33,264 bases of DNA, taken from Anaerolineales bacterium. Lineage in GTDB: Bacteria > Chloroflexota > Anaerolineae > Anaerolineales > Villigracilaceae. Positions 2,115 through 33,264 of the stretch are shown in pieces. The notes under the pieces were generated by a model that was given only the letters and a program-made list of their open reading frames with translations, ran no database searches and was not told where the DNA came from. The position numbers and the translations under genes are program-made. Within the stretch, counting starts at the first letter, position 1. Each line of letters begins with the position of its first letter. Location: positions 1 through 33,264 of the forward strand of contig DAOTVX010000038.1 in the NCBI GenBank assembly GCA_034436275.1, read 5' to 3'.

Positions 2115-3470
2115 ATGCCATTCCGACCTTCTTCCAACCCCGCCGACTGGCAGACTGGCGTTTACAATCGCCAGGAATTCGATCGCGATATAGCACAACG
2201 CCGGGTGCATCTGTGGCTGTCTTTTCTCGTGGCTACTCTGCCGGCAGGGCTGGTGCTTTTCGCCCTGTTGCAGTACGAACGCACCAGCAGGCTTTTCACT
2301 TCCTGGAACGCCTGGATATTAACGCTGCTCGGTATCCTCCCGTTAGCAATGTTATTCGACTTTCTGATAGTCAGAGCAGCCGTGCGGATCGCGGCGCAAT
2401 TCTTGCGCGAATTCTACCGGCCGCCTGAAGAGATCAACCCTGCACGAATCATCTGGTTTCGTCTGTACGGCATGTCAGATTTCACGAAAGTCGGTGAATG
2501 GCGGCAATTCCCTTACATCCTGGTCCGGGAAGGGAAATTGTTTGATGAAAAGGGTGACCATCAGGCCTGGATGGCGCAAAATCTGGGCGGGCCGCTGCGC
2601 CTGATTATTTTCGATGGCAACGCTCTGTATCTGGAACGAGGAGGCCGTTTTTCCCGCGTGGTTGGTCCGGGCCGTACCACCGCCTTTCTGGATTGGTTTG
2701 AAACGATCAAAGAGATCGTGGATACCCGCCCTCAAATGAGAGAGGACGCTCTGCTCCCCTGCTGGACGAGGGATGGAATTCGGGTCAACGTGACCGCGCG
2801 CGTGGAGTGTTCTTTAGGGAACCCGGCAGGCGAACAACGCAGGCTGCTCTATCCTTTCGATCCGGTGGCAGTCAGGAACGCCGTCGAACGCACCTCTGTG
2901 CGCATGCCCGACGGCAAAACACTCACCGAGATGAAAGGCTTGGATTTGGTCTGGGGGCAGGTGACCGGTGTGATACCGGATTATATTGGTCAATTCAAAC
3001 TGGACGAACTGCTCCTGCCCGAGCGAGGGGCCAGCCCAATCCTCAGCGCGGAAGCCACACAACACCTGCGCGACGCACTCAACCGGCTGACGCAACCGTT
3101 CGGTTACCACGTAACGAATGTGCAGATTACGCGTATCGAACTCCCTGCCGCCATCGAGGAACAGCGTGAACGCAACTGGCAGGCCGAACGGCAGAGTCTG
3201 GCGAATTTAATGCACGCCCAGGCAGAAGCGGCGCGCATTCGCGCCATCGAGCAGGCCCGCGCCGAAGCGCAACGCGACCTGATTCTGGCCATTGCCGAAG
3301 GCCTGAATCGCGATCCTACCCGGCGCTTTGCCGAACCGCTCCTCCTCGCCCTGACCAGCACGATTACCACCAGCCTGGCGAATCCGCTTGTGCCGCCTCT
3401 GCTGACTCCCGAAACGCTCCGCTCACTCGAGCAGTTAAAGGCCTTGCTGGAGGGGCAACATGAAACCTGA
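2115..3470 (+). CDS. Membrane SPFH/band-7 (stomatin/prohibitin-like) domain protein (451 aa)
   Basis: Two N-terminal TM helices (LWLSFLVATLPAGLVLFALL; ILTLLGILPLAMLFDFLIV). An SPFH-like core ends in TNVQITRIELPAAIEEQRERNWQAERQSLANLMHAQAEAARIRAIEQARAEAQRD, the typical coiled-coil tail. There is a 5-nt gap after the previous gene. Confidence 0.7.
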   Translation: MPFRPSSNPADWQTGVYNRQEFDRDIAQRRVHLWLSFLVATLPAGLVLFALLQYERTSRLFTSWNAWILTLLGILPLAMLFDFLIVRAAVRIAAQFLREFYRPPEEINPARIIWFRLYGMSDFTKVGEWRQFPYILVREGKLFDEKGDHQAWMAQNLGGPLRLIIFDGNALYLERGGRFSRVVGPGRTTAFLDWFETIKEIVDTRPQMREDALLPCWTRDGIRVNVTARVECSLGNPAGEQRRLLYPFDPVAVRNAVERTSVRMPDGKTLTEMKGLDLVWGQVTGVIPDYIGQFKLDELLLPERGASPILSAEATQHLRDALNRLTQPFGYHVTNVQITRIELPAAIEEQRERNWQAERQSLANLMHAQAEAARIRAIEQARAEAQRDLILAIAEGLNRDPTRRFAEPLLLALTSTITTSLANPLVPPLLTPETLRSLEQLKALLEGQHET

Positions 3471-5468: not shown

Positions 5469-6397
5469 ACTCATCATCGCTACGTATCGCCCGTACCCCC
5501 GAAGTCACTCAGGCCCTGCAACGCGGCCTGCCTGTCGTGGCCCTGGAATCGGCAGTGATCACGCACGGCCTGCCTCGCCCCAGCAACCACGCTCTGGCGC
5601 GCGGCATGGAGCAAGCCATCCGCGACGAAGGAGCAACGCCGGCCACGATCGCCGTCCTCCATGGTCAGATTCACGTTGGTCTGACCGCAGAGCAGCTCCA
5701 GCAATTAGCCCAGCAGAGCGACGCCCAGAAGATCAGTCCGCGCAATCTGGCCGCTGTGCTGCTGCAGAAAGGAAGTGGCGGGACAACGGTCGCCGGCGCA
5801 CTCTGGATCGCCCAACGCGCGGGGCTGAAGGTCTTTGCTACCGGTGGCATCGGCGGCGTGTATTCGCCGCTCACCCTGGATATCTCCGCCGACTTGCCCC
5901 TTCTGGCCGAGTCGCCCCTGATTGTCGTCTGCGCTGGAGCAAAGGCCATTCACGATTTGCCCGCCACCCTGGAATACCTGGAGACCGTTGGCGTGCCGGT
6001 CATCGGCTATCAGACCAACGAGTTTCCGGCCTTCTACTGGCGCGAAAGTGGCCTGCCGGTGACCATACGCCTGGATACGCCCAAAGAGGTGGCAGATTTT
6101 GCGCGCCTGCACTGGGGTCTGGGAATGCACAGCGCGGTGCTGGTCTGTCAACCTCCACCCCGTGAGCAAGCGCTGCCCCGCGCCGGGCTGGAAAGCCTGA
6201 TTCACCGTGTGCGAGCCGAGGCCGAGAAACAAAACATCCGCCGTCAGGCATTAACGCCGTTCCTGCTGCAGCGCCTGAACGATCTGACCCATGATGAAAC
6301 GCTGCGCACCAATCTGGCGCTCTTGCTGCACAACGCCTCGCTGGCCGCCCGCATCGCCTGCGCCATGCCTCTGGAAAAAACTCCCCAGACCATTTGA
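5465..6397 (+). CDS. psuG: Pseudouridine-5'-phosphate glycosidase
   Basis: VVALESAVITHGLPRPSN and FATGGIGGV motifs are characteristic of PsuG (indigoidine synthase A-like family). ATGA overlap with psuK. Confidence 0.85.
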   Translation: MNSSSLRIARTPEVTQALQRGLPVVALESAVITHGLPRPSNHALARGMEQAIRDEGATPATIAVLHGQIHVGLTAEQLQQLAQQSDAQKISPRNLAAVLLQKGSGGTTVAGALWIAQRAGLKVFATGGIGGVYSPLTLDISADLPLLAESPLIVVCAGAKAIHDLPATLEYLETVGVPVIGYQTNEFPAFYWRESGLPVTIRLDTPKEVADFARLHWGLGMHSAVLVCQPPPREQALPRAGLESLIHRVRAEAEKQNIRRQALTPFLLQRLNDLTHDETLRTNLALLLHNASLAARIACAMPLEKTPQTI

Positions 6398-25446: not shown

Positions 25447-26250
25447 TCACGAGGGCGCTAACGCGGCACGCAAGGCGGACACGAAACGCGCCGCGTGCGC
25501 AACCGGCGTTTCACTCTGCCGCACGACTTCGATCAGCGCCGAACCGACGATGACGCCATCGGCCAGCCTCCCTACCTGGCGCGCCTGCTCTGGCGTGGCA
25601 ATGCCAAAACCGACCGCCAGCGGTTTATCGGTGACAGCCCGGGCGCGCTCCACAAAGGCGCTCAAATCGGGCGGCAGCGTCTGCCGCGCACCGGTTACGC
25701 CCGTCAGGGATACCAGATACAGGAAACCGGTCGTACGTTCCCCAAGCCGCTTCAGACGGTCAGGCGGCGTGTTGGGCGAGGCCAGAAACACCAGCGCCAG
25801 ACCGCTGTTCCGGCAAAGCATTTCTGCCTCCGCCGCCTCTTCCAGCGGTAAATCGGGCAGAATCAGCCCATCTGCCCCCGCCTGCGCCGCATCGCGAACA
25901 AACCGTCCCAGGCCATAGGCCAGCGCCGGGTTGAGGTATCCCATAAGCACGAGGGGCTGGGTCAGGCCACGCTGACGCAAGACGGCAGTCATTTCCAGGG
26001 CGCGCTCCACGCACATCCCCTGCTCCAATGCAACCTGCGTGGAATGTTGTATCGTAGGGCCATCGGCCAGAGGATCCGAGAATGGGATACCCAGTTCCAG
26101 CAAATCCGCGCCGGCCTGAGCAATCGCCATGATAATTTCCAGAGACAGGGAAGGATCGGGATAACCCAGGGTAAAGTAAGGCATCAGGGCCGCGCGACGC
26201 TGCGCGCGACAGGTTCGAAACAGGGTAGCCATGCGCTCAATGCCTGTCAT
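25447..26250 (-). CDS. trpA: Tryptophan synthase alpha chain
   Basis: [12 protein letters not shown] ... [18 protein letters not shown] ... GFGI are TrpA signatures. Start overlaps the trpB stop (ATGA). Confidence 0.9.
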
Positions 26251-27458
26251 GTTGCCCTCGCAAGAGAAGGGGTGGGATTTTCCATCAACAGAGCTTTCGT
26301 TACCGTATCCAGGTCTTTATCGCCGCGACCGGAAAGATTGACGAGGATAATCGTCTCCGGCGACAGAGCGGGTGCCAGTCGAATCGCCTCGGCCACCGCG
26401 TGCGCCGATTCAAGCGCCGGCAGGATTCCCTCCGTACGCGCCAGCATTTGAAAGGCGTCGAGTGCCTGCGCATCCGTCGCCCAGGTGTATTCAGCGCGGC
26501 CCACCGCGCGCAGGTAGGCATGTTCCGGCCCTACCGCCGCGTAGTCTAAACCGGCAGAAATCGAGTGCGTCTCGGCAATCTGTCCGTCCTCCGTTTGCAA
26601 AACAAAGGTGTACGTGCCATGCAGGACGCCAGGCCGCCCCAACTGCGTATCCGCGAAGCGGGCCGCATGACGTCCACTTTCGATCCCTTCGCCGCCGGCC
26701 TCCACCCCTATCAGGCGCACAGCGGCATCGTTCAGAAAGGCAGTAAACAGACCAATGGCGTTCGAGCCGCCTCCCACACAGGCCACACAGACATCTGGCA
26801 AACGTCCGGCCTGTTCCAGAATCTGGGCCCGCGCCTCATCGCCGATGACCCGCTGGAAGTCGCGCACGATGGTCGGGTATGGATGTGGCCCTAACGCCGA
26901 ACCGAGCAGGTAGTACGTATCGCGCACATTCGTCACCCAATCGCGAATCGCCTCGTTGATAGCATCCTTCAGGGTGCGACTGCCGCTCTCAACCGGCCGC
27001 ACTTCAGCCCCAAGCAAACGCATACGCAGCACGTTCGGCTGCTGGCGGGCCATATCCACGGCGCCCATATACACCACACACTCCAGGCCCAGCAGGGCCG
27101 CGGCGGTCGCGGTAGCAACACCATGCTGACCGGCACCAGTCTCGGCAATGATACGCCGTTTGCCCATGCGTTTGGCCAGCAGAGCCTGTCCCAACGCGTT
27201 GTTGATTTTATGGGCGCCGGTATGCGCCAGGTCCTCACGCTTCAGGTAGATTTGCGCTCCGCCCAGCGACTGGCTCAAGCGGCGAGCATGGAACAGCGGC
27301 GTTGGCCGCCCGGCGTATTTCTCCAGCAAGTCTTGCAACTCACTTTGAAAGATTGAATCGCGCCGCGCCGCCTCGTAAGCGGCCTCCAGCTCAGCAACTG
27401 CCGGCATCAAGACTTCAGGGATAAACTGTCCTCCAAAAGGGCCAAATTTTGCGTTCAT
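26247..27458 (-). CDS. trpB: Tryptophan synthase beta chain
   Basis: [29 protein letters not shown] (PLP lysine), GGGSNAIG, and the full-length 403-aa match to the TrpB pattern. Confidence 0.95.
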
Positions 27459-28120
27459 GGTTCCTTCTCCCAGGCCAGAGTTTCCAGGGCGGCGCGTGCC
27501 TGTTGCACGAACGCCTGCATTTTACACCGATCTTTCCGCCCCGGTTCCGCTTCCACGCCTGACGCCACATCCACACCCCATGGGCGGACCTGCTGCACGG
27601 CCGCGGCAACGTTTTCCGGCGTCAGGCCGCCGGCCAGCAAAATCGGCATCCAGCGCGCCACGCTGCGCGCCAGCGCCCAATCCGCCTGTTGACCGGTGCC
27701 GCCGTACTGTCCGCGCACCGCCGCATCCAGCAGGTAAGCCGGCGGCGCAGGACGGGGAGGATAGTGTAACAGCGCGGCCTGGAGATCGCGACCATTGGCC
27801 AGGCGCAGGGCCTTGAAGGCGCGCCCCCCAAGCGCCTGTATCGCCTCCGGCGTCTCATCCCCAGACAGTTGCGCCAGATGCAACCCACAGGTATCCAGAA
27901 GCGCCGCAATCTCTGTGGCCGGCGTATTGACAAAGACCCCAACGAGCGTGACGCCAGGCGCCTGTTCGGACACATGACGAGAGATTTGGGCACAGACCTG
28001 CGGCGTCACATAGCGCGGGCTTTTGGGGTAGAAATTGAATCCCAGCATATCCGCCCCGGCTTCCACCGCCGCCAGCGCATCCTCGAGCGTCGTCAGGCCA
28101 CAGATTTTCACCACGATCAT
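27455..28120 (-). CDS. trpF: Phosphoribosylanthranilate isomerase
   Basis: [38 protein letters not shown] is the canonical TrpF N-terminus. ATGA overlap with trpB. Confidence 0.9.
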
Positions 28121-28129
28121 CGTTTCACC

Positions 28130-28921
28130 TTACTTCCCGCAGAACTCTTTCACCTTTTCCGCCACATCCCTGGCCGTAACCAGCGCCTCGCCTACCAGAA
28201 TGGCATCCACACCGGCCTCGGCCAGGGCACGCGCCTCGCGCGCCCCGTGAATACCGCTCTCGGCCACCACGCAGACGGAAGCGGGAATGTACGGGCGCAG
28301 ACGAAAGGTTGTTTCCAGATTGACGGAAAAATCGCGCAGGTCGCGGTTGTTAATGCCGATCAACACCGGGGCACACTCCAGGGCACGCGGCAGCTCGTCC
28401 AGGCGGTGTACTTCAACCAGCGGCGTCATGCCCAACTGCCGCGCCAGCGCATGCAGGCGAAGCAGGGTAGGCTGGTCCAGGCCGGCGACGATGAGGAGCA
28501 CCGCGTCGGCGCCTGCGGCGCGCGCCTCATACACCTGATACTCATCACAGAGAAAATCTTTGCGCAGCAACGGCAGGCGCGGGACGAGAGCGGCAATCTG
28601 GCTCAGAAAATCGAGATGTCCCTGAAAGTACCGCTCATCGGTCAGGACGCTGATGGCGGCGGCGCCATTCGCCGTGTACAGGCGCGCCAGCTGCAGCGGG
28701 TCGAAATCCGGGCAGAGCACGCCCCTGGAGGGCGAGGCCTTTTTGACTTCAGCGATGAGCGCCGGCAGGGTATCGCTTCGTCCGGAACGCAAGGCGCCGA
28801 TGAAATCGAGCGCAGGAGGAGCGACCTCGGCGGCGCGTTGCACGGCTGCCAGCGGCCTGACCTGCCTGCGCCCGGCTACTTCCCTGCGCTTATGGGCAAA
28901 AATCTCATCCAGAATGCTCAT
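28130..28921 (-). CDS. trpC: Indole-3-glycerol-phosphate synthase
   Basis: IAEVKKASPSRG ... LRKDF ... GADAVLLI ... VVAESGI motifs of TrpC. Confidence 0.9.
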   Translation of the reverse strand: MSILDEIFAHKRREVAGRRQVRPLAAVQRAAEVAPPALDFIGALRSGRSDTLPALIAEVKKASPSRGVLCPDFDPLQLARLYTANGAAAISVLTDERYFQGHLDFLSQIAALVPRLPLLRKDFLCDEYQVYEARAAGADAVLLIVAGLDQPTLLRLHALARQLGMTPLVEVHRLDELPRALECAPVLIGINNRDLRDFSVNLETTFRLRPYIPASVCVVAESGIHGAREARALAEAGVDAILVGEALVTARDVAEKVKEFCGK

Positions 28922-28936: not shown

Positions 28937-31900
28937 TCACGCCTGTCTGGCATTCACTTCGGCAAATTTCTGACTCTGCGCAACCAGCGCCTCCAGTCTG
29001 GCCAGGGCCGCGCCGCTATCCAGCGCCTGGCGCGCCTCCTCCAGAGCCGCCGTCAGGTCGCCGCTTTCTGCCGCCAGCGCCGCTGCCGCGTTCAGCAAAA
29101 CCACATCCCGGCGCGGTGAGCGGTCCTCACCGCTGAGAATCGCCCGCAGGGCAGCAGCATTCTCCTCAGGCGTTCCGCCGCGCAGATCATCCAGACTGAC
29201 GGGGCGCAATCCGAACTCAGCCGGGTCCAGATCAAAGGTGGTCACGCGGCCATCGCGCAAGGCGCTGACGCGATTCGGCCCGGCGGTCGTCAGTTCATCC
29301 AGACCGCCATACCCATGAACGACAAACGCGCCGCGACTGCCCAGTTCGCCCAGCACCTCGGCCAGCGGTTCGGTGAGCGCCGCGTCAAACACGCCGATCA
29401 ATTGATGCGTGGCTCCGGCGGGATTGGTCAGGGGGCCAAGGATGTTGAAAATCGTTCGCTGTCCCAGTTCACGACGCGGGCCGATGGCATGTTTCATGGC
29501 CGGGTGAAAACGCGGCGCGAAGATAAACCCGATGCCGACTTCTTCAATACAGGCCGCCACCTGTTCGGGCGTTAAGTCCAGATTGACGCCCAGCGCGGCC
29601 AGCACATCGGCGCTGCCACAGCGAGAGGAGGCGGCGCGATTGCCATGCTTGGCAACTTTCCGCCCGGCGCCCGCCAGGACGAACGCCGCCGCCGTGGAGA
29701 TGTTGAACGTGTGCCGGCCATCGCCGCCGGTACCGGCTGTATCAAGCAGGCTGCCGCCGTTCACCCGCACCGGCACGCGCGTCGCCTGGGCGCGCATAGC
29801 GCGCACACTGCCAACGATCTCGGCCACCGTCTCGCCCTTCATGCGCAGCGCCGTCAGGTAAGCGCCTATTTGAGCCGGCGTAGCCTGACCGCTCATGATG
29901 ACCTGCATTGCCTGCTCGGCCTCTTCAGCAGTCAGGTGTTGGTGCTGCAAGAGTTTGGCAAGAAATGGTTTTAACATATCAACCTCCTTTGCAGATGAAA
30001 CGGAGGGCGGCGTCTCGCCTTTGTTCGTCGGCGCGCCGCCTCTCACCGCCAGAAAATTGGTTAACAGTTCCTTCCCATACTGGGTCAGAATCGACTCGGG
30101 ATGAAACTGCACACCAAAGATAGGGTATTCCCTATGGCGCAGTCCCATCACTTCTCCTTCCGCCGTAGTCGCGGTCACCTCCAGCACCGGCGGCAACGGC
30201 TCTTTGACAATCAGGGAATGGTAGCGCGTTGCCTGAAACGGGCTGGGCAGGCCGGCAAACAAATCCCTGCCCTGATGTTGAATCAACGAAGTTTTGCCAT
30301 GCATCAGGCGCGGTGCGCGCACGACCTCGCCGCCAAAAACTGCCGCAATGCACTGGTGACCGAGACAAACGCCCAGCAGCGGGAGGCGCGGCCCCAGACG
30401 ACGAATCACCTCGTTCGAGATACCGGCGTCGGCCGGCGTCCCTGGTCCAGGCGAGATCACAATATGGGTGGGATTCAGCGCCTCAATATCTTCCACACGA
30501 ACGGCATCGTTGCGGAATACCCGGACTTCGGCCCCCAGTTCTTCCAGATATTGCGCCAGATTGTAGGTGAAGGAATCGTAATTATCAATCAGCACCACCC
30601 GCCAGCCGCGACCTTCAACCGCCGCCATACTCTCCGCGCCTTTGCGCCGGCCCTCGGCGTTCTCCACCGCCACCACCAGCGCCCGCGCTTTATTCAGGCT
30701 TTCCTGATACTCGCGCTCCGGATCCGAATCGGCGACGACCCCGCCCCCCGCCTGAATATGCACCGTATCGCCCTGCATCACCAGCGTGCGCAGGGTAATG
30801 CAGGTATCCAGCGAACCATCGTAGGAAAAGTAGCCGACCACGCCGGCATAGATACCGCGCGGCTGTCCTTCCAGTTCTTGAATAATCTGCATGGCGCGCA
30901 CCTTTGGCGCCCCGCTGACCGTCCCGGCCGGGAAGGTGGCCTGGAGCAGATCGAAGGCGTCCTGATCGGGGCGTAGTTCGCCCTCCACCTGCGAGACAAT
31001 ATGCATCACATGCGAATAACGTTCGATGACCATCTCTTCCGAAACATGGACGCTGCCGCCCAGACAAACGCGCCCGAGGTCATTGCGCGCCAGGTCCACC
31101 AGCATAACGTGCTCAGCGCGTTCTTTCGGGTCGGCCAGGAGTTCCTGTTCGATGGTCGCATCCTCGGCGGCGCTCTTACCACGTGGACGGGTGCCGGCAA
31201 TGGGGCGAATCAGGGCGCGCCGCCCCTCCAGGCGCACGTGCACTTCAGGCGAGGCGCCGATGAGGCGTAACGGGGCAGGTGCGGTCAGAGCGCCAAAATC
31301 GAAGTAGAACATGTATGGCGAGGGATTGAGGCGGCGCAGGGCGCGGTAAATATCCAGCGGCGTGGCGCTGGTCTTGCGACTCAACCGTTGCGAGGGGACC
31401 ACCTGAAAAATATCTCCGGCGCGGATGTATTCCTGAGCGCGGCGCACCATGCTCAGGTATTCTTCACGCGTCTTGTTGGAATGCATCCCGCCGGCGACCA
31501 TGCCGGTCGGCTCGGCCTGGCGTTCCGGCAGCGGCGCGTTCAGGCGCGTCTCCAGGTCATCGAGACGGGCGGACGCGGCCTCTATCTCCTGTTCATTTTC
31601 GGTCACTGCCAGCAACAGCAAGCGTCCATAGGCATGATCAAAGACAACCAGCGTGTTGGCCTGTAAAAAGATGGCTTCTGGCCAGGCGCGTTCGGGCTGG
31701 ATCGGCACCGTTGGTTCAAAGAAGCGCACCACGTCATAGCCCACATAACCCACCAGGCCGCCGACAAAGCGCGGCAGTCCCGGCACGTTGACCGCCTCGC
31801 GCATGCCCAGCGCGGCGCGCAGTAAGCGCAGTGGATTTTCGCCGTCCGTCAAGGCATGCCGCTCGACGCCTTCGGCAGTGTGAATCTCCCAGGCCCCATC

Positions 31901-32116
31901 CCGAAGCAGATAGGCCTTTTGCGGTCTGACGCCGACGAACGAATAGCGCGCCACCTGTTCGCCGCCGGTCACACTCTCCAGCAAGAACGAGGGTTGATGG
32001 TCAGCGAGTTTCAGGTACACCGATATGGGCGTCTCCAAATCGGCGTTGTGTTCGCGCAGCAGGACGCGCCGTTCGCCGCCAAGTGGAAAGACTTGTTGAT
32101 GAACATGGACTTTCAT
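28937..32116 (-). CDS. trpEGD: Trifunctional fusion: anthranilate synthase component I (TrpE) + glutamine amidotransferase (TrpG) + anthranilate phosphoribosyltransferase (TrpD), 1060 aa
   Basis: Single stop-free frame. TrpE part (SFLLESV ... ends [18 protein letters not shown]). TrpG part ([30 protein letters not shown] catalytic triad). TrpD part ([10 protein letters not shown]..., [11 protein letters not shown], ...). Start set at ATG 32114-32116, 6 nt after a GGAGG ribosome-binding site. The ORF is open upstream to 32230. Confidence 0.85.
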
Positions 32117-32535
32117 ACCTGCCTCCATCCAACAGCCGGTAAACAAAAATCTCCTCTCATCCGAGGGACGAGAGGAGATTCCCGTGGTGCCACCCTGATT
32201 AGGCTGGCCTGTCTCCTGCGCAGGAAACAAAAACCCGTCGGTCAGACGACGGGAAAAGGAAAGCCAGCCTCACTCGTTACGGGTACAGCCGGGTGCTTTC
32301 TCACGCCATGGGTTGCCATGACTGAAGCACCTTGTGCGCGAAGAGCGGCGATACCCTTTGCCCAGATAACGGTGGCAACTCCGGCGCGGGCTACTTGGCA
32401 ACGGCCTTTCGCCCTGCGGCTCCGAGAACCATTCAGCGCCGGCGTCTGGGTCGGGCTTTCACCTGGCCCCGACTCTCTGTACCAGCGTTTCAGCGCTTAC
32501 TCTTTCTCTTCACAGCCTTTCACACGTTCCATTGT
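32117..32535 (-). ncRNA. T-box riboswitch leader (presumed tRNA-Trp responsive) of the trp operon
   Basis: Minus-strand AATCAGGGTGGCACCACGGG (plus 32181-32200) matches the T-box consensus AAUUAGGGUGGNACCGCGG. It is followed immediately by a terminator with a 10-bp stem (32149-32158 / 32170-32179) and UUUUUGUUU. A second hairpin cccgtcg-tctgac-cgacggg + tttttgttt lies at ~32232-32262. Confidence 0.6.
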
Positions 32536-32803: not shown

Positions 32804-33264
32804 TCAGGAATAGGTACATCTTCGCCATAATGTCCAGTGGGGATCAGCGATCTTGACAGGGTTATTGTTCGAATAAGCATACCTATCATACCCCTGCACC
32901 CCCGGCGGAATGATGGTATCCGCACTCACAAACCGCCCCAGGGTGGGACTGTACCAGCGCGCATTGTAAAAGTACAGACCGAACTCTACCAGATGCGAGT
33001 ACTGCCCCGTGTACGTGTAGCGCGTCGACAGCGCACCCCTATTATACCGCTCCTCCCCCCACGGCCGATAGCGCACCTCGCTCACCACACGCCCAGCCCC
33101 GTCCACCACCAGGCTGGTTGAGCCTAGATGGTCGCCGAACAGGTAGTGCACCTGCCCACCCTGCCGCAACGCCACCCGCCGCCCGTTCAATTCGTAGTAC
33201 TTCGTCACCGGGTCGGTCGTGTACCGATACACCGTCTCCCATTCCGCCAGATTCCCCACCGCAT
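32804..33264 (-). CDS. RHS repeat-associated core domain protein, C-terminal fragment (gene continues beyond window); toxin tip essentially absent
   Basis: GLYFYNARWYSPTLGRFVSADT ... DRYAYSNNNPVKIADPHW matches the RHS-core signature (GLYYxRARYYDPxxGRFxSxDP ... RYAYxxNNPxxxxDPxG). Only 9 residues follow before the stop. Confidence 0.7.
   Translation of the reverse strand, partial: AVGNLAEWETVYRYTTDPVTKYYELNGRRVALRQGGQVHYLFGDHLGSTSLVVDGAGRVVSEVRYRPWGEERYNRGALSTRYTYTGQYSHLVEFGLYFYNARWYSPTLGRFVSADTIIPPGVQGYDRYAYSNNNPVKIADPHWTLWRRCTYS

Follow-up and report, generated by a model that had tools for sequence, protein, structure and literature searches.

The window analysed here, the whole 33,264-nucleotide stretch of contig DAOTVX010000038.1 from an Anaerolineales bacterium (Chloroflexota; assembly GCA_034436275.1), carries on its minus strand a tryptophan operon, trpEGD-C-F-B-A, with all genes on the same strand. 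Its first cistron, trpEGD, combines in a single open reading frame (ORF) the coding regions for anthranilate synthase component I (TrpE), its glutamine amidotransferase (TrpG) and anthranilate phosphoribosyltransferase (TrpD) (Table 1). A preliminary description of this DNA had proposed such a fusion at positions 28937-32116, with short in-frame linkers, intact catalytic motifs and no stop codon across 3.2 kb. Our analysis bears this out: the minus-strand ORF is uninterrupted, the fusion is genuine, in frame and made of complete Pfam and NCBIfam domains, both junction peptides quoted earlier are found in the translation, the linkers measure approximately 16 and 20 residues, and the catalytic motifs are invariant across 17 aligned fusions. 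The further claim that the first two steps of tryptophan biosynthesis lie in one polypeptide is supported by domains, family cut-offs and motifs, and thus at the level of sequence.

The stop codon of trpEGD occupies positions 28937-28939 and the ATG start positions 32116-32114, and the protein opens with MKVHVHQQ. In the ORF listing the minus-strand open frame extends over 28937..32230 and would encode 1097 amino acids if begun at TTG. TTG 32230 was rejected as the start of trpEGD, as it sits within the T-box leader. Translation probably begins at ATG 32116, because this codon is preceded at 5 nt by a Shine-Dalgarno (SD) sequence GGAGG (anti-SD duplex energy: -9.3 kcal/mol), because the T-box and its terminator fill positions 32141-32522, and because homologues from our protein cluster search are also approximately 1059 amino acids long. 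The coordinates 28937-32116 are therefore correct.

Table 1. Features of the trpEGD locus. Positions are those of the window; residues of the five Pfam rows are in the 1097-residue frame (minus 38 gives the 1059-residue numbering)
Feature	Position	Strand	Residues	Basis or remarks
trpEGD	28937..32116	-		single ORF, 1059 codons + stop
Shine-Dalgarno GGAGG	32122..32126	-		5 nt 5' of ATG 32116-32114; read from sequence
TrpE domain, anthranilate synthase component I	30650..32116	-	1-489	PF04715 + PF00425, TIGR00564, Foldseek
E-G linker	30602..30649	-	490-505	low pLDDT, variable sequence
TrpG domain, class-I glutamine amidotransferase	30038..30601	-	506-693	PF00117, TIGR00566, triad
G-D linker	29978..30037	-	694-713	low pLDDT, variable save last few codons
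Internal start signal (candidate)	29975..29989	-		AAGGAGG 29983-29989, 5-nt spacer, ATG 29977-29975 = Met714, in frame
TrpD domain, anthranilate phosphoribosyltransferase	28940..29977	-	714-1059	PF02885 + PF00591, TIGR01245, Foldseek
Anth_synt_I_N			64-205	Pfam PF04715
Chorismate_bind			255-514	Pfam PF00425
GATase			546-727	Pfam PF00117
Glycos_trans_3N			754-816	Pfam PF02885
Glycos_transf_3			827-1076	Pfam PF00591
trpC, indole-3-glycerol-phosphate synthase	28130..28921	-		Pfam PF00218, E 1e-84
trpF, PRA isomerase	27455..28120	-		Pfam PF00697
trpB, tryptophan synthase beta	26247..27458	-		PF00291; TIGR00263 631 vs 392
trpA, tryptophan synthase alpha	25447..26250	-		PF00290
T-box leader RNA, Trp (UGG) specifier	32161..32522	-		Rfam RF00230, 105.1 bits vs gathering 93, full model
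T-box terminator hairpin	32141..32179	-		ATCTCCTCTC / 11-nt loop / GAGAGGAGAT, then TTTTGTTT tail; read from sequence

The five Pfam domains were recognized with E-values from 1e-25 to 4e-94. We then compared NCBIfam bit scores with the curated cut-off of each family. The window protein exceeded those of TIGR00564 (the trpE_most equivalog; 543.2 vs 517.7 bits, model positions 1-454 of 455), TIGR00566 (trpG_papA; 242.3 vs 121.05), TIGR01245 (TrpD; 420.6 vs 199.05) and the bifunctional TrpG/TrpD model PRK14607 (NF011201; 696.4 vs 670, model positions 1-530 of 534). It remained below those of the enteric bifunctional TrpG/TrpD, PRK09522 (423.8 vs 738), and of the fused TrpE-TrpG models TIGR01815 (TrpE-clade3; 402.1 vs 739.15) and PRK13566 (462.7 vs 645). 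PabB models and the other TrpE-subtype models all scored under their own cut-offs.

In the alignment of 17 TrpE-TrpG-TrpD fusion proteins, the TrpE motifs LLES (45-48), NPSPYM (264-269), PIAGTR (305-310) and EH (335-336), H369, the stretch 395-405, E469 and E472 were invariant, including residues E47, S48, N264-Y268, A307-R310 and G398-K405. LLES and NPSPYM are the tryptophan-feedback motifs; the catalytic residues of TrpE we take to be those established for the Serratia, Salmonella and Sulfolobus enzymes. The TrpG triad C584, H672 and E674 was likewise invariant across the 17 fusions, and the TrpD motifs GTGGD (795-799), KHGNR (823-827) and DE (940-941) were conserved. These results bear on the possibility that the chorismate and amidotransferase domains are PabB and PabA of folate synthesis, or that one domain is a dead remnant, so that the first two tryptophan steps would not be combined. 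The families are close, so that the models TIGR00553, PRK09070 and PRK07649 match strongly too, and TrpG and PabA are often a single shared protein. However, only TIGR00564 beats its curated cut-off, with every PabB model below its own, LLES, NPSPYM and every catalytic residue are kept, and the gene is the first of a complete set of trp genes preceded by a T-box whose specifier is UGG. We consider a folate or remnant role very improbable.

The preliminary description had called for a search for the same domain architecture. In our search of 5.8 billion protein clusters (clusters are denoted by P, loci by L), P0001, a JGI protein almost identical to that of the window, came up together with 23 other clusters, these at 55-88% identity. 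These approximately 24 clusters contain proteins of 1051-1076 amino acids, each with all six Pfam domains, and comprise approximately 105 sequences from NCBI, JGI, ENA and Logan assemblies; the named carriers are Anaerolineales or Anaerolineae metagenome-assembled genomes (MAGs). A near-identical contig in JGI sample 3300009503 bears the same ORF, and in the DNA context of nine fused relatives each locus consists of a single ORF followed by trpC-F-B-A. The linkers of close relatives are in frame, equal in length and partly conserved; that between TrpE and TrpG varies in sequence over the family while its length is constant in close relatives.

Recurrence of this kind addresses the concern that adjacent trpE, trpG and trpD genes only seem continuous owing to a sequencing or assembly error, through an erased stop codon or a shifted frame. 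Such an error is conceivable, as abutting or overlapping trpE, trpG and trpD are the norm (in the unfused locus L003 described below, trpG and trpD are one codon apart) and as the window ORF is known from assembled sequence, not from reads. The same fused ORF, however, occurs in approximately 24 clusters at 90% identity from various samples and assemblers, identical copies of the P0003 protein occur on five contigs (three of these are from two NCBI assemblies and a Logan run), and close relatives keep in-frame linkers of equal length. A missed stop or frameshift is thus effectively excluded by the same architecture in independent assemblies. We regard the chance of an artefact as negligible and this explanation as already refuted in practice.

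An AlphaFold2 model of the window protein, built on a 45-sequence alignment, showed three confident domains (mean predicted local distance difference test, pLDDT, 84; mostly 80-95 in TrpE). Among segments of more than four residues, pLDDT fell below 50 only at residues 490-502 and 694-713. Such a pattern is expected of three folded units joined by flexible tethers. Foldseek aligned the TrpE module with solved TrpE and PabB structures (TM score 0.84-0.92) and the TrpD module with solved anthranilate phosphoribosyltransferases (0.92-0.96). Apart from an alignment with PhzE, which ran over approximately 700 columns at a root-mean-square deviation of approximately 20 Å, all Foldseek matches covered single domains. 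No chain in the PDB spans more than two of the TrpE, TrpG and TrpD modules, nor is there a solved TrpG-TrpD together with TrpE.

A contiguous polypeptide of this kind had been suggested to be uncommon, which is borne out by the few full-domain clusters in our search, by the absence of a solved structure and by the absence of a description in the literature searched. All six Pfam domains at near-full fusion length were limited, in the first protein search, to P0001-P0024, P0028, P0029, P0031 and P0035. A scan of GTDB representative genomes with a single protein query, which is not a census and whose patterns, such as FGVQFHPE, match any TrpG, gave at least 600 matches. Of the 80 loci kept, which also supplied unfused genes for comparison, L001 alone encoded E, G and D as a single ORF; where the contig of another kept locus spanned all three parts, the genes were either three individual ORFs or a trpE with a trpGD fusion. 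In a library of representatives at 50% identity no triple-fusion representative was listed, though such proteins exist, and this library is therefore too lossy for an estimate of frequency; its best match (689 bits) was an 855-amino-acid protein that aligned with the TrpE and TrpD parts of the query in two stretches. The fusions named in the literature are trpGD and trpEG (PMC1854888, PMC2395257). In the searchable literature, 'trpEGD' denotes gene order only and we found no description of a TrpE-G-D polypeptide; subscription papers could mention one. We conclude that the triple fusion is rare but not unique. It apparently has not been described before, and combines two well-known fusions in a form kept in a clade.

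Outside the window family, E-G-D fusions were found in P0031 (locus L090; a 1022-amino-acid protein on a prokaryotic contig of 45% GC, in an operon EGD-C-F-B-A), in P0028 (Acanthamoeba castellanii transcripts that encode a protein of approximately 1125 amino acids), in P0035 (Creolimax fragrantissima) and in P0029 (a Logan sequence of 1172 amino acids). Domain order is as in the window and motifs are intact. These four share 40-41% identity with the window protein, and their linkers are unrelated to those of the window and carry no methionine at the junction between TrpG and TrpD. A second Anaerolineae lineage with the fusion, L089 (P0021-P0024), heads a trpC-F-B-A operon. In the Acanthamoeba Neff annotation, the E-G-D sequence is split on one contig into ELR21148.1 (371 amino acids, partial component I) and ELR21146.1 (706 amino acids, annotated 'anthranilate phosphoribosyltransferase'), which is probably a gene-model error.

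In an unbootstrapped neighbour-joining tree of concatenated E, G and D segments, the unfused Anaerolineales MAG L003 came out as sister of the window clade (the window, L081-L088 and L001), the unfused L052 was the neighbour of the fused L089 lineage, and L090 was placed beside a Thaumarchaeota locus. By sequence comparison, the fusions of other lineages probably arose independently, and we tentatively propose at least three prokaryotic origins in addition to eukaryotic ones. Apparently E, G and D were joined on several occasions, in bacteria, in protists and possibly in archaea.

We also noted a large group of TrpE-TrpD fusions of approximately 836-896 amino acids with no GATase domain in between (P0027, P0030, P0032-P0120 and P0121), one of them from 'Candidatus Udaeobacter'; no mention of such a fusion was found in the literature searched. 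In three longer proteins, P0123 (1345 amino acids), P0138 (1313 amino acids) and P0240 (1213 amino acids), two or three query parts were matched at unusual positions (TrpD at residues 113-376 in P0138). These may be further multi-enzyme tryptophan fusions.

To trace the origin of the fusion, we searched with a 451-amino-acid query that spans both junctions. The matches were a very large set of bifunctional TrpG-TrpD proteins of approximately 540 amino acids, many of them from Anaerolineales and other Chloroflexota MAGs; this search listed only such G-D proteins and P0025, as a pre-filter had dropped P0001-P0024. The G-D half of the window protein was 63-76% identical over the full length to the aligned TrpG-TrpD proteins, and a linker ending in KE-x-D-MLKPF was common to both. 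The fusion of G with D is accordingly the older one and is widespread; what is new is the in-frame addition of trpE. The scores far below the TIGR01815 and PRK13566 cut-offs indicate that the E-G junction is an independent fusion event. Judged by these similarities, trpE was probably joined onto an existing trpGD gene of a type common in Chloroflexota.

The preliminary description had raised the question whether relatives have separate genes. This is the case in the sister MAG L003; many other relatives are fused. In L003, an ATGA overlap links trpE to trpG, whose end reads GGT ATG TAA GAG GTG CCT GTG ATG TTA AAA: a TAA stop stands where the fused genes have AAG (lysine), and after it come an SD and the start of TrpD, MLKPYLAK. 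Since trpG and trpD of L003 (positions 2391-3005) are in the same frame with this one TAA codon between them, a single point mutation would switch between split and fused G-D.

The same junction of the window gene carries a candidate internal start signal. The linker ends in GCA AAG GAG GTT GAT ATG, and the methionine thus encoded, Met714, is the exact first residue of free-standing TrpD homologues; on this comparison it is the ancestral TrpD initiator. We computed anti-SD duplex energies 5' of every in-frame ATG. Of the 20 such codons in the window gene, that of Met714 had the strongest pairing (-12.5 vs -9.3 kcal/mol at the true start). The junction ATG also ranked first in L085 and L086, and second in L087, L088 and L089. 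At the E-G junction, neither a conserved methionine nor an SD was found among the relatives compared or in the energies of in-frame ATGs.

A retained internal SD and ATG means that the locus may yield more than one polypeptide. This would refine the trifunctional interpretation developed below: in addition to the full TrpE-G-D chain, a free 346-residue TrpD would be translated from Met714, with the result of excess phosphoribosyltransferase or of TrpD subunits that dimerize with the fused chain. We consider both the two products and this outcome possible, with the chances somewhat against them. Several observations point in their direction besides the pairing ranks and the match with free-standing TrpD. 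The purine-rich element is present under different residues in three subclades (KE, KGE/KGD and RRKG), in a linker that has otherwise diverged completely. The junction methionine was present in 22 of the 25 Anaerolineales fusions and in all 14 sequences of an alignment with bifunctional TrpGD relatives, and was absent from the eukaryotic fusions and L090. L001 has lost the SD and the ATG together. Finally, the junction ATG was chosen by a gene caller in P0273, a 346-amino-acid 'free TrpD' that clusters with P0008; as an instance of a split gene P0273 was rejected, as it is a fused gene cut by the contig end with the internal ATG called.

Other observations argue for a single product. The remaining three Anaerolineales fusions have leucine at the junction, so the methionine is dispensable (in L082 the ATG is changed to CTG, with the SD kept and a TTG adjacent). 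The change from methionine to leucine is conservative, and MLKP could be kept because it opens the first TrpD helix. Linkers rich in lysine, glutamate and glycine give purine-rich DNA, in which AAG and GAG are expected at 60% GC, and an in-frame ATG in the GATase domain (EGEVM motif) shows SD-like pairing purely through amino-acid conservation. The internal start is, moreover, a candidate read from the sequence. Taken together, the evidence for translation of free TrpD from the fused mRNA is suggestive, not conclusive. In L086 (approximately positions 5986-6003), the 15 nt AAGGAGGTTCCCATG are the same at the true trpEGD start and at the internal TrpD start, which may be a coincidence or a copied initiation region.

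A bolder extension is that the locus represents a gene within a gene, in which selection keeps the internal ribosome-binding site and start codon, one mRNA gives a 115-kDa chain and free TrpD, fused and split states are interconvertible by point mutation, and the same holds in the TrpG-TrpD family. We regard this as speculative and rather unlikely. If true, many 'bifunctional' tryptophan enzymes in Chloroflexota and beyond would be dual-product loci. In any case, the internal start signal provides a testable case of reversible gene fusion and fission.

From the combined evidence, the product of the ORF is highly likely to be a truly trifunctional enzyme with anthranilate synthase and anthranilate phosphoribosyltransferase activity. 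By analogy with the known families, the TrpG domain (C584/H672/E674) would hydrolyse glutamine and hand the ammonia to TrpE, TrpE would convert chorismate to anthranilate under tryptophan feedback through the LLES/NPSPYM site, and TrpD would condense anthranilate with phosphoribosyl pyrophosphate to give phosphoribosyl-anthranilate. The three folded domains would be tethered by the two flexible linkers, and a T-box riboswitch that senses uncharged tRNA-Trp would control the whole trpEGD-C-F-B-A operon. An upstream trpE would have joined the already fused trpGD, and the fusion has since been maintained in the Anaerolineales clade. Dimerization through the N-terminal helical bundle is a property of TrpD enzymes, and in enteric bacteria the complex has the composition TrpE2(TrpG-D)2. 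From these two precedents an (EGD)2 assembly is expected: the protein is probably a dimer with a fixed 1:1:1 stoichiometry, possibly with free TrpD added.

Some points weigh against this interpretation or parts of it. The activities of all members are assigned from known families, and the continuity of the window fusion is known from assembled sequence. The neighbour-joining tree behind the evolutionary scenario carries no support values. The AlphaFold2 model has a predicted TM-score (pTM) of only 0.53, so that the relative placement of the domains is of low confidence. With this pTM and with Foldseek matches to single domains, TrpG may pair with TrpE in cis or, as in PhzE, in trans.

The closest comparison is the enteric complex TrpE2(TrpG-TrpD)2 of E. 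coli and Salmonella, which has three modules in the order E-G-D with TrpG covalently bound to TrpD, and the same overall composition as predicted for the window protein. In the latter, TrpE is covalently attached as well. The score below the PRK09522 cut-off indicates that its G-D part belongs to a different TrpGD lineage from the enteric one. Control also differs, as the enteric operon is regulated by TrpR and leader-peptide attenuation and the window operon would be under a T-box. Greater likeness is found with the PRK14607-type TrpG/TrpD proteins (approximately 540 amino acids; many Chloroflexota, Actinomycetota and Bacillota MAGs), whose cut-off is exceeded by the G-D half of the window protein and whose linker motif it shares. 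These begin at TrpG and have a separate TrpE partner, to which the window protein compares as an addition of a 489-residue TrpE and the E-G linker.

PhzE (ADIC synthase; PDB 3r75, 3r76) consists, like the first part of the window protein, of a chorismate enzyme followed by a GATase domain via a linker, but acts in another pathway and lacks TrpD. Its dimer is intertwined and its linker much longer, and the deviation of approximately 20 Å indicates that the modelled arrangement differs from it. Among multi-domain proteins of the tryptophan pathway, the fungal TrpG-TrpC-TrpF is a precedent for at least three activities per chain. Another is the Euglena polypeptide with five catalytic tryptophan domains (PMC2395257); neither joins E, G and D. 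The fused TrpE(G) anthranilate synthases of Rhizobium, Azospirillum, Legionella and others are a known fusion (PMC2395257, PMC1854888) with E followed by G in one chain, as in the window, but without TrpD; the TrpE of the window is of the ordinary 'trpE_most' type, unlike that of these fusions (TIGR01815, PRK13566).

The triple fusion is therefore a neat and unsurprising extension of known tryptophan-pathway fusions, and the internal start is the most interesting lead. It illustrates that two-module E-G and G-D fusions can combine into one chain that spans anthranilate synthase and phosphoribosyltransferase. As a simple scaffold, such a chain could serve structural studies of the complex of anthranilate synthase and phosphoribosyltransferase; it would also suit tests of anthranilate hand-over between active sites and the metabolic engineering of tryptophan or anthranilate production. 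Database labels of such proteins ('bifunctional', 'component I' or 'hypothetical') are misleading. Knowledge of the chemistry and regulation of the pathway is unchanged by the finding.

Downstream of trpEGD, trpF and trpB as well as trpB and trpA overlap by 4 nt. Upstream, the T-box terminator overlaps the 3' end of the RF00230 match; our terminator scan missed this hairpin because its loop limit is 8 nt and the hairpin has a loop of 11 nt. A GAA-UGG specifier is found at the same position in the window leader and in seven related leaders. T-boxes precede the fused genes of L001 (5604-5918), L082 (9627-9951), L085 (5621-5956), L086 (5646-5959), L087 (5636-5946) and L088 (972-1281), and the unfused sister L003 has one as well (470-797). 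In L089 and L090 no T-box scored at or above the Rfam gathering threshold. The UGG specifier marks the operon as a tryptophan-responsive biosynthetic unit. Control of trp genes by T-boxes in Chloroflexi has already been reported (PMC2494555), so this part of the locus is ordinary.

Within the T-box leader, a second GC-rich hairpin resembling an intrinsic terminator was noted at 32234-32253 on the minus strand (CCCGTCG...CGACGGG followed by TTTTTGTTTC), in the variable region 5' of the T-box sequence. This hairpin and the true terminator approximately 90 nt downstream have an identical TTTTTGTTT tail. Stem III is one possible identity for it, a tandem or early terminator another. The minus strand at 32804-33259, a short way 5' of the trp leader, encodes the C-terminal portion of a protein with RHS repeats (TIGR03696 RHS repeat-associated core domain, E-value 1.8e-17), which extends toward the right edge of the window.

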